Shown: positions 13,278 through 15,520 of the stretch, piece after piece
How the letters are laid out: the number at the start of each line of letters is the position of its first letter
Position numbering within the stretch: position 1 is the stretch's first letter
Assembly: GCF_003334315.1 (NCBI RefSeq)
Contig: NZ_QOWR01000052.1
Strand: one strand, 5' to 3'
DNA: 33,060 nucleotides
DNA from: Escherichia coli
Lineage (GTDB): Bacteria; Pseudomonadota; Gammaproteobacteria; Enterobacterales; Enterobacteriaceae
The notes under the pieces: generated by a model
Told to the model about the DNA's origin: nothing
The model's input: the letters and a program-made list of their open reading frames with translations, nothing else
Databases searched by the model: none
Translations under genes and position numbers: made by a program

Positions 13278-14918
13278 TCAGCGTGTTTTGCGCCAACCGA
13301 CAAACCAGGCGATCAGACCACCTGCCATTAACCAGCCGGGCATCAGCCCCCATTCAGGTCGGCTGACCAACAAGAATGTGCCACTTAATACTAACGTAGC
13401 GCCAATTCCGAGAAAATAACGCGATTGTCCCTGACGTACGTGATTTGACTGAAGCTCGCGGGCAATCTTATCAACACTGTGCTGTAAATACTTGCCCTGG
13501 CGCAAACTGTCGTAAACCAGTTCAGGCAGTTCTGGCATTTTTTCGACCCAGAACGGCGCTTTTTCTTTAAATGCTCTCACCAGCGCAGGAATACCGACCT
13601 GATCTTTAATCCACGACTCCAGGAAAGGCTTCGCCGTTTTCCATAAATCGAGTTGCGGATAAAGCTGGCGTCCTACCCCTTCGACGTAGAGCAGGGTTTT
13701 CTGGAGTAACACCAGTTGCGGCTGCACTTCCATATTGAAGCGACGCGCCGTATTAAACAGATTTAACAGTACATGTCCAAACGAAATTTCGGCCAGCGGT
13801 TTCTCAAAGATAGGTTCACAGACCGTACGAATGGCAAATTCGAACTCTTCAACGTTGGTATCTGGTGGCACCCAACCAGAATCGACGTGTAGCTCTGCCA
13901 CTTTGCGATAGTCGCGATTAAAGAAGGCGATAAAGTTTTCCGCCAGATAGCGTTTATCTTCTTTGTTTAGCGAGCCAACAATCCCGCAATCAATGCCGAT
14001 ATATTTCGGGTTTTCCGGGTGTTCATAGCTTACGAAGATGTTGCCAGGGTGCATATCAGCATGGAAAAAGCTGTCGCGAAAGACCTGAGTGAAGAACACC
14101 TGCACGCCGCGTTCCGCCAGCAATTTCATGTTGGTGCCGTTTTTCTCCAGCGTCGCAACATCAGACACCGGAATGCCGTAAATACGCTCCATCACCATCA
14201 TCCCTTCACTACAATAGTCAGGGTAAACTTCCGGGATGTAGAGCATCGGGCTGTCTTCAAAATTGCGCCGAAGCTGAATGGCGTTGGCAGATTCCCGCAG
14301 CAAATTCAGTTCATCAATCAATGTCTTTTCGTACTCGCGCACCACTTCGGTTGGGCGCAGACGGCGACCATCCGGCAGCAAACGTGGCACCCAGCGAGCC
14401 AGACGGTAGATAAGTTTCAGATCCGCTTTAATAACCGGCAAAATATCCGGGCGGATGACTTTAATCACCACCTCTTTACCATTCGATTTCAATCGCGCGG
14501 TATGAACCTGGGCGATAGAAGCAGAAGCCAGCGGCTTGATTTCAAAATCGTCAAACCACGCTTCTACCGGCAAGCCGCCCATTGCAGCTTCAATCTGCTG
14601 CTTCGCCAGCTTGCCATCAAACGGAGCAACTTTGTCCTGCAATAACGCCAGCTGATCGGCAATATGCGGTGGAAAAAGATCGCGGCGGGTTGATAACATT
14701 TGCCCGAACTTGATCCAAACCGGCCCCAGTTCTTGCAGGGCCAGTCGTAGTCGCTCACCTAAAAGTTTGTCTTTATGCCGATTTGGCATCCAGAATAATG
14801 AGTATCGCCATAGCCGTAGCGGCAGGGTGATACGCATTTTGGGGATCAGTTCATCAAGTCCGTAGCTTAAAAAAGTGCGAATGATGAAATATAGGCGCCG
14901 TACTTCACCTGGCGTCAT
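13278..14918 (-). CDS. ubiB: ubiquinone biosynthesis protein UbiB (ABC1/ADCK-family atypical kinase-like)
   Basis: 546-aa [30 protein letters not shown]... with C-terminal TM segment; its start overlaps the ubiJ stop as ATGA. Confidence 0.92.
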
Positions 14919-15520
14919 TTAGCCTCCAGTTTTTCCAGCCGTTTGGTCAGGGCATCAACAGCACGCTCGACGGCAGCCGTCTCTTCCGCAAACCAGGCCA
15001 CTTCAAGCGGACCGGGTGCCATACGCCACTCTTCAGTAATGGCTTCCGCCACATAACGTTGCTGGCGCTTAATGCCGTGATGCAGGAACTTTGCGCCTCC
15101 GCGCATGGCTTTGCTGATTCCTTCAGCGGCGATATCACCGGTATAAGGGGCCAGCAGTTCCGCAGGGTCGAACTCTGCCAGATCTGCCAGCGCAACGAAG
15201 TTTTGCACCACCTGAATATCGCCCTGCACTTCCAGCTCACCACTGCGAATCAGTGCGGTAAGCTGCTGGCGATCGCGAAGTTTCGGCAACACACTGGCGT
15301 AGGCGATAACGGTGCAGTCAGCATCGCCTGCCCATTCGCCCAGTACATCAACCTGGCGTTCGCTGAACACCAGAATCAATGACGTCGAAAAGCCTTTTAC
15401 CTCCACGCGCAATACTTTACCCAGCAGACGCGAGCGGGCCGTTTTCAGCGCGGGTGAGCGATACAGGAAGGTGTTGAGCAGACTTTCAATTCCTGCCGTC
15501 ACTAAAGGTTTAAAAGGCAT
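14915..15520 (-). CDS. ubiJ: ubiquinone biosynthesis accessory factor UbiJ (YigP; SCP2-like lipid-binding)
   Basis: [35 protein letters not shown]... (201 aa from ATG 15520), 13 nt after the ubiE stop. Confidence 0.85.

Follow-up and report, generated by a model that had tools for sequence, protein, structure and literature searches.

Can the 3' end of a conserved protein-coding gene also be the template of an independent small RNA (sRNA)? This is the question raised by ubiJ (yigP) of Escherichia coli, the last 252 nucleotides (nt) of which encode the C-terminal part of UbiJ, an accessory protein of ubiquinone synthesis, and are annotated at the same time as the sRNA EsrE. The locus was analyzed in a 33,060-nt stretch of an E. 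coli genome (assembly GCF_003334315.1, contig NZ_QOWR01000052.1), hereafter the window; all coordinates refer to this whole stretch, and ubiE, ubiJ, and ubiB all lie on its minus strand. The reading that we hold to be highly probable is that of an operon with packed gene junctions, in which the 252 nt called EsrE are the UbiJ C-terminal coding sequence and the phenotype of 3' deletions stems from loss of this part of the protein.

The annotated EsrE coincides with the C-terminal coding part of ubiJ

The genes and the parts of ubiJ that bear on this question are as follows.
15534-16289, minus strand: ubiE coding sequence, 251 amino acids (aa), a C-methyltransferase of ubiquinone and menaquinone synthesis (NCBIfam NF001240 and RefSeq annotation).
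14915-15520, minus strand: ubiJ (yigP) coding sequence, 201 aa plus TGA (ATG at 15520-15518, TGA at 14917-14915).
15182-15478, minus strand: SCP2 lipid-binding domain, UbiJ residues 15-113 (Pfam PF02036, E = 1.3e-22).
14915-15166, minus strand: helical C-terminal part of UbiJ, codons 119-201 plus stop, the same 252 nt as esrE b4707 and Rfam RF02757.
14921-15010, minus strand: terminal helix, UbiJ residues 171-200 (AlphaFold predicted local distance difference test [pLDDT] score of 93-97), reported to form a coiled coil with UbiK.
13278-14918, minus strand: ubiB coding sequence, 546 aa, an ABC1/UbiB-family atypical kinase (NCBIfam NF003404 and RefSeq annotation).

The locus is the ordinary, already known E. 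coli ubiE-ubiJ-ubiB ubiquinone operon segment. All three products scored above the cut-offs of their NCBIfam equivalog models (UbiE, NF001240, 508.7 bits with a cut-off of 378; UbiJ, NF047938, 335.2 bits with a cut-off of 275, residues 1-201 falling on profile positions 1-201; UbiB, NF003404, 932.6 bits with a cut-off of 667), and the order of the neighborhood (tatDCBA, ubiB, ubiJ, ubiE, rmuC, udp) agrees with the RefSeq annotation. The ubiE-ubiJ nucleotides are those of K-12 MG1655, the 13 mismatches in 5 kb all lying outside these two genes; UbiJ (YigP) of K-12 (b3834) is the same 201-aa protein, with the same SCP2 domain, helical tail, and place in the operon and no difference. Every one of the 5426 complete E. 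coli genomes searched carries the 606-nt ubiJ, and the gene order ubiE-ubiJ-ubiB is also kept in distant homologue loci.

The claim of the sequence-only reading that the 3' part of yigP had once been reported as the sRNA EsrE is borne out by two annotations. Rfam RF02757 ("Erse") matches 14915-15166 on the minus strand over its full length, at 319.5 bits with a gathering threshold of 138, and the K-12 RefSeq record (NC_000913.3) places the noncoding RNA esrE (b4707) on exactly the same 252 nt, inside ubiJ. Annotation of another E. coli genome (NZ_CP025849.1) by the Prokaryotic Genome Annotation Pipeline (PGAP) has ubiJ only, without esrE; because esrE stands in the curated K-12 record and is absent from the PGAP genome inspected, the pipeline does not carry the sRNA annotation over.

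The persistence of b4707 and RF02757 favors the view that the locus has a dual function, the 252 nt also giving rise, from an intragenic promoter, to a trans-acting sRNA that pairs with the sdhD, murE, murF, and argI mRNAs and is needed for ubiquinone-8 (Q8) synthesis and aerobic growth. We give this view a very small probability, the lowest of all those considered. The boundaries of the annotation already speak against it: the first nucleotide of EsrE is exactly the first of codon 119, a codon boundary, and its last is exactly the end of the ubiJ stop codon.

The C-terminal part is a conserved segment of the UbiJ protein

The ubiJ product is predicted to be a two-part accessory protein of the Q8 metabolon, in which an N-terminal SCP2 domain (residues 1-118) is followed by a C-terminal part made of helices (residues 119-201), the last of which would pair with UbiK as a coiled coil. 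UbiJ binds UbiK and is needed for aerobic Q8 synthesis (PMC9499169; PMC10470549), and the UbiK-binding region has been placed at UbiJ residues 171-201, in a UbiJ-UbiK2 coiled coil (PMC9499169). Residues 1-120 are identical to the crystallized SCP2 domain (PDB 6H6N, 6H6O, and 6H6P). Taken alone, the C-terminal 83 residues match positions 119-201 of NF047938, the UbiJ model, with a score of 129 bits, and AlphaFold, given a 27-sequence homologue alignment, folds residues 119-200 with a mean pLDDT of 88.9 into helices at 119-127, 129-167, and 171-200.

Distant homologues were drawn from a 50%-representative search of 1.84 billion representative proteins. UbiJ homologues numbered 1292; alignments span the whole protein for those that are about 200 aa long and share 24-50% identity, and homologues in this range keep an R-L-x-x-L-E pattern in the terminal helix. 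The 27-sequence alignment has just two invariant residues, one of them E164; it shows at least 90% conservation of G128, D129, and L198 and contains a TEEWRLxPGxLE motif. In both fold confidence and conservation, the terminal helix ranks first among the segments. UbiT (YhbT), the paralogue that serves the O2-independent UbiUVT pathway, is likewise a lipid-binding SCP2 protein that acts as an accessory factor in ubiquinone synthesis (PMC10470549); unlike ubiJ, ubiT lies in another operon, with ubiUV.

Selection on the 252 nt appears to act on the protein

Nucleotide variation in the EsrE part resembles that in the rest of the gene. Diversity at the three codon positions was 0.15/0.11/0.50 in the EsrE part versus 0.18/0.08/0.51 in the SCP2 part, which is the signature of coding in the ubiJ frame. 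The ratio of nonsynonymous to synonymous divergence (dN/dS) was 0.073 versus 0.045, with a pairwise dS of 0.733 versus 0.678, and 4-fold sites were no less diverse in the EsrE part (0.565) than in the SCP2 part (0.529), ubiE (0.491), or ubiB (0.523). Among six Escherichia sequences, there were 0.458 synonymous-only variable codons per codon in the EsrE part versus 0.432 in the SCP2 part. Neither reduced synonymous variation nor a conserved seed was found in the EsrE part, where frozen sites are confined to the region in which ribosomes bind for ubiB. Apart from that region, all detectable selection on the 252 nt operates at the protein level.

Two other open reading frames (ORFs) across ubiJ, one in an alternative frame (14947-15243, minus strand) and one antisense (15059-15382, plus strand), were rejected as frame artefacts; codon-position variability fits the ubiJ frame only.

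The frozen sites lie at the very end of ubiJ.
14924-14941, minus strand: ubiJ codons 194-199 (CGG CTG GAA AAA CTG GAG), the sole run of frozen synonymous sites in ubiJ.
14923-14927, minus strand: ubiB Shine-Dalgarno sequence GGAGG, within the ubiJ frame in codons 198-200, 4 nt before the ubiB ATG.

In the sample used for junction conservation (80 species-representative Enterobacteriaceae genomes and the window, 81 sequences in all), the GGAGG is unchanged in 81/81, synonymous third positions included, and alignment columns T239-G244, in the 3' part of ubiJ that holds this Shine-Dalgarno sequence, are invariant. The codons of positions 194-199 are kept as CGG in 69, CTG in 70, GAA in 66, AAA in 65, CTG in 79, and GAG in all 81. 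We interpret them as the translation-initiation region of ubiB. The frozen stretch reaches beyond the GGAGG, to some 25 nt before the ubiB ATG, and keeps the rare arginine codon CGG; it may mark an element that serves ubiB as a ribosome standby site or an enhancer.

Tests of RNA structure yield no signal beyond chance

As RNA, the 252 nt fold no better than dinucleotide shuffles (z = -0.67; 53/200 shuffles are at least as stable). The consensus structure of RF02757 (its SS_cons line) is identical, character for character, to the minimum free energy structure of a single sequence and therefore contains no comparative information. Covariation was tested on 81 ungapped sequences, with 500 shuffles and partners slid by 1-3 columns as controls. 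No excess of compensatory change was seen among these sequences: 25 pairs had changed on both sides, versus 22.8 in the shuffles (85/500 of which reach 25) and 21-27 in the slid controls. In the RF02757 structure, 77.6% of the cells are paired, versus 76.6% in the shuffles, and the long-range helix reaches only 61.6%. An RNAalifold consensus over the 252 nt keeps just 9 pairs, at -2.99 kcal/mol.

The RF02757 score itself drops from 320 to 150 bits across Enterobacteriaceae, is below the threshold in Cedecea, and gives way to no match in distant loci; it weakens as the nucleotide sequences diverge and disappears at loci whose UbiJ protein is still conserved. The match is uninformative because the model was built on ubiJ coding sequence, and its score tracks the divergence of that sequence. 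The EsrE family (RF02757; Chen 2012, Xia 2017, Hou 2019) comprises the same 252 nt, with a structure that has no covariation support. The lack of thermodynamic, covariation, and synonymous-site signals all argues against a trans-acting EsrE, and the sRNA annotation in K-12 RefSeq and Rfam appears to be devoid of comparative or sequence-level support.

Promoter and terminator signals

The EsrE transcript has been ascribed a promoter of its own, for which a probe has been published.
15129-15316, minus strand: "PesrE" promoter probe, located by mapping the primers PD-1 and PD-2 of PMC9728176; in the annotation, EsrE begins at 15166.

A consensus scan, which can miss a weak or activator-dependent promoter, found no sigma-70-like promoter near 15166 on the minus strand. 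The best -35/-10 pair at the EsrE 5' end, TTCGTT-16-CAGAGT, has 5/12 matches, a score equaled or exceeded at 75% of window positions, and the codons under "PesrE" show a 4-fold diversity of 0.543, i.e., no constraint. Conversely, lacZ fusions of fragments upstream of 15166 were reported to be active, which favors the sRNA, and Hou et al. (2019) described binding of Fur to the 188-bp "promoter" probe, with a shift at 0.5-7 μM protein (PMC9728176). A search of the probe for the 7-1-7 consensus, with up to 3 mismatches allowed, found no Fur-box-like site. Two adjacent weak Fur 7-1-7 matches (3 mismatches each) lie at 16397-16432 on the plus strand, in the 3'-terminal part of rmuC, some 110-140 nt before the ubiE start. 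The whole window has 3 Fur matches versus 0.96 expected, a number that 10/100 shuffles reach and that is not significant.

No intrinsic terminator was found after ubiJ; the nearest terminator-like match is a 5-bp stem with the tail ATATTTCATC, inside ubiB, and the region has six such matches versus 3.8 expected, no more than chance would give. ubiJ has no 3' untranslated region (UTR) because ubiB starts inside the ubiJ stop codon, with which the annotated EsrE also ends. Small RNAs of the MicL and DapZ type end at the Rho-independent terminator of the parental mRNA and carry a conserved seed. EsrE is like them in having a claimed promoter inside the upstream coding sequence and in sharing its sequence with the 3' end of a gene; it differs from them in lacking a 3' UTR, a terminator hairpin with a U-tail, and a conserved segment of noncoding character. 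It has nevertheless been assigned to this class, the type I 3'-UTR-derived sRNAs with intragenic promoters, such as MicL in cutC and DapZ in dapB (PMC5581919). The absence of a sigma-70-like promoter, of the terminator or U-tail typical of Hfq-dependent sRNAs, and of a 3' UTR adds to the case against EsrE as an sRNA.

A second alternative draws on the same signals. An internal ubiJ transcript could be a messenger and not a regulator, reading on into ubiB for extra or growth-phase-specific expression and perhaps yielding a peptide from Met139 or Met167 that would explain complementation from plasmids. The missing terminator between ubiJ and ubiB would permit such read-through, and the reported excess of 3'-region signal in quantitative reverse transcription-PCR (qRT-PCR) fits any internal start (PMC5581919). 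On the other side, there is no promoter-like sequence, the codons of the claimed promoter are unconstrained, and neither ubiJ (yigP), esrE, ubiB, nor ubiE is among the rows listed in the supplements of Adams 2021 (Term-seq) and Yan 2018 (SMRT-Cappable-seq), a weak negative. We regard this alternative as unlikely.

Complementation experiments and internal starts

The literature is split, with one laboratory arguing for the sRNA and the work on UbiJ and UbiK for the protein. According to the sequence-only reading, the sRNA was later reinterpreted as the UbiJ C terminus. This is correct as to the history of UbiJ, but the course of events was not that simple: the laboratory that had first described the sRNA reasserted it in 2017 and 2019 (PMC5581919, PMC9728176), the former paper (Xia et al.) arguing for both an independent sRNA and the UbiJ protein from the same locus. 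A 2024 preprint still calls the reports on EsrE and UbiJ conflicting, and EsrE is cited as an sRNA in downstream studies (e.g., PMC5437351).

Several observations weigh against the reading that we prefer. Promoterless multicopy 3' fragments of 313-367 bp complement a yigP deletion, as do four versions with single-nucleotide deletions (pT-002 to pT-005), and no Flag-tagged polypeptide was detected from complementing fragments (PMC5581919). The same laboratory reported that Q8 reaches about 50% of the normal level in a strain with a 5' deletion and described, from lacZ fusions, a transcript with its own promoter (PMC5581919, PMC9728176), for which the latitude of a consensus scan leaves room. 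The absence of conservation, moreover, may be compatible with a young, E. coli-specific RNA function. The complementation and Flag results are also arguments for a trans-acting EsrE, together with the qRT-PCR excess of 3'-region signal, seen at 5 h, and the two- to three-fold shifts of sdhD, murE, murF, and argI reporter fusions when EsrE is overexpressed (PMC5581919). The experiments in its support come from one laboratory and from multicopy plasmids, and the UbiJ laboratory, so far as its work is relayed by Xia et al., reports the opposite: in Aussel 2014, as described there, a scrambled 3' region is functional and frameshifts in the last 50 codons abolish function (PMC5581919).

The complementing fragments also have coding capacity, with two candidate internal starts.
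15104-15106, minus strand: in-frame ATG of Met139, with AAGGA 12 nt upstream; possible internal start of a 63-aa C-terminal peptide.
15020-15022, minus strand: in-frame ATG of Met167, with GAAGAG upstream; possible internal start of a 35-aa peptide.

Both ATGs lie in an in-frame ORF that all complementing fragments contain, and the fragment made with primer P43 begins at GTG104-GTG105. Because every complementing fragment holds this ORF, complementation may be due to a short C-terminal peptide expressed from the multicopy plasmids, which counts against the sRNA and for an internal messenger. The latter is also favored by the loss of complementation upon frameshifts in the last 50 codons (Aussel 2014, in the part relayed in PMC5581919) and by the high fold confidence and strong conservation of the terminal helix, which exceed those of all other segments. 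The absence of a Flag-tagged product speaks against the messenger (PMC5581919), as does the distribution of the two starts. Codon 139 is ATG in the window and K-12, CTG in five other Escherichia loci, and CTG, TTG, TTT, or ATT elsewhere; ATG is outside the six codons most common at this position over the 81 species and is specific to E. coli proper. ATG167 is present in 55/81 species and absent from 26/81. Neither start is conserved, and therefore no conserved short UbiJ isoform is implied. Truncated UbiJ proteins beginning at such a start are produced by gene callers (P0168 and P0180 among the homologues).

A third alternative combines elements of the two others and is restricted to E. coli proper: the 3' part of ubiJ would encode the UbiK-binding helices and, in addition, an RNA from a recent weak promoter, acting in trans (on sdhD, murE, murF, or argI) or as the messenger of a 63-aa or 35-aa micro-UbiJ. 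This lineage-specific scenario survives the conservation tests because a recent innovation leaves no comparative signal; we nonetheless consider it very unlikely, if marginally less so than a trans-acting EsrE of the first kind. Under the preferred reading, that of a protein-coding 3' end, the effects of 3' deletions on aerobic growth and Q8 are best explained by loss of the C-terminal segment of UbiJ, possibly with effects on ubiB, and not by loss of a trans-acting RNA. That the protein alone would account for the phenotype is taken from the literature.

Conserved gene junctions point to translational coupling

The packing of the operon is seen at its two junctions.
14915-14918, minus strand: ubiJ stop/ubiB start overlap ATGA (ubiB ATG at 14918-14916, ubiJ TGA at 14917-14915).
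15521-15533, minus strand: ubiE-ubiJ spacer CAGGAGACCGGAA, 13 nt, with the Shine-Dalgarno sequence AGGAG at 15528-15532, 7 nt before the ubiJ ATG.

The sequence-only reading had noted the ATGA overlap, a ubiJ start 13 nt after ubiE, and, from these, tight coexpression of the three genes. Both junctions are as described, the ubiE stop codon (TGA, 15536-15534, minus strand) directly preceding the spacer. ubiJ is 201 codons long in 81/81 sequences and ends in the ATGA overlap in 79/81; in the other two, a strain labeled E. coli and E. albertii, the genes overlap by 1 nt, as TAATG. The ubiJ/ubiB junctions of four distant homologue loci (28-43% protein identity) read ATGA, GTGA, ATGA, and ATGA. The ubiE-ubiJ spacer is 9-13 nt long and contains GGAG in 74/74 loci scored, being 13 nt in 58 species; in distant homologue loci, the two genes are separated by 16 or 11 nt or overlap as TAATG. 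GTG is the ubiJ start codon in nine loci (L036-L038, L040, L041, L045, L047, L051, and L053), eight of which are labeled Enterobacter, and most of these also have the shorter class of spacer, beginning with GTGGAGGT.

These junctions have the standard anatomy of translationally coupled genes, from which we infer coupling of ubiB to ubiJ. The coexpression of ubiE, ubiJ, and ubiB is supported because the overlap is deeply conserved and the ubiB Shine-Dalgarno sequence inside the end of ubiJ is invariant. The three genes would be packed for coordinated translation from one mRNA. The ubiB ATG overlaps the ubiJ stop codon and its GGAGG falls in codons 198-200, so that ribosomes ending ubiJ could reinitiate or hand over at ubiB. 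Classic coupled overlap junctions are trpE-trpD, trpB-trpA, and galT-galK. Like coupled junctions with ATGA or TAATG/TGATG overlaps, ubiJ-ubiB has a stop/start overlap and a Shine-Dalgarno sequence for the downstream gene in the frame of the upstream gene; the overlap type switches between ATGA and TAATG among close relatives, and, unlike in the classic cases, the argument for coupling here is drawn from anatomy and conservation only.

No hairpin of unusual stability was found at either junction. The ubiE-ubiJ junction (15490-15570, minus strand) is less structured than shuffles (z = +1.94; 197/200 shuffles fold at least as well), which fits selection for an accessible translation-initiation region. 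At the ubiJ-ubiB junction, no hidden structure that would enforce coupling was found beyond chance (z = +0.42 and -1.10).

Other features of the window

Two further observations concern DNA away from the operon. A match to the Rfam family RF02564 (naRNA4, nucleoid-associated noncoding RNA 4, or CssrE) was found at 7692-7769 on the minus strand, at 92.1 bits with a gathering score of 59.5. It is flanked by the ORFs at 6470-7633 (plus strand) and 7916-8650 (minus strand), which we take to be fadA and fre from the K-12 gene order, and is likely an element of the repetitive extragenic palindromic (REP) or bacterial interspersed mosaic element (BIME) type. A second 4-nt stop/start overlap occurs at 2750-2753 on the minus strand, between the ORFs at 2750-4081 and 2136-2753 on that strand, presumably pepQ and yigZ by the same gene order.

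Implications

The value of these findings is mainly curatorial. The label of an essential sRNA persists in K-12 RefSeq and Rfam, and the comparative tests strengthen the case for flagging or retiring it. Phenotypes of lesions in the 3' part of ubiJ would best be read as loss of the UbiK-binding part of UbiJ and possibly of ubiB expression. The biology of the locus is that of the textbook, a core ubiquinone operon with compact, conserved junctions.

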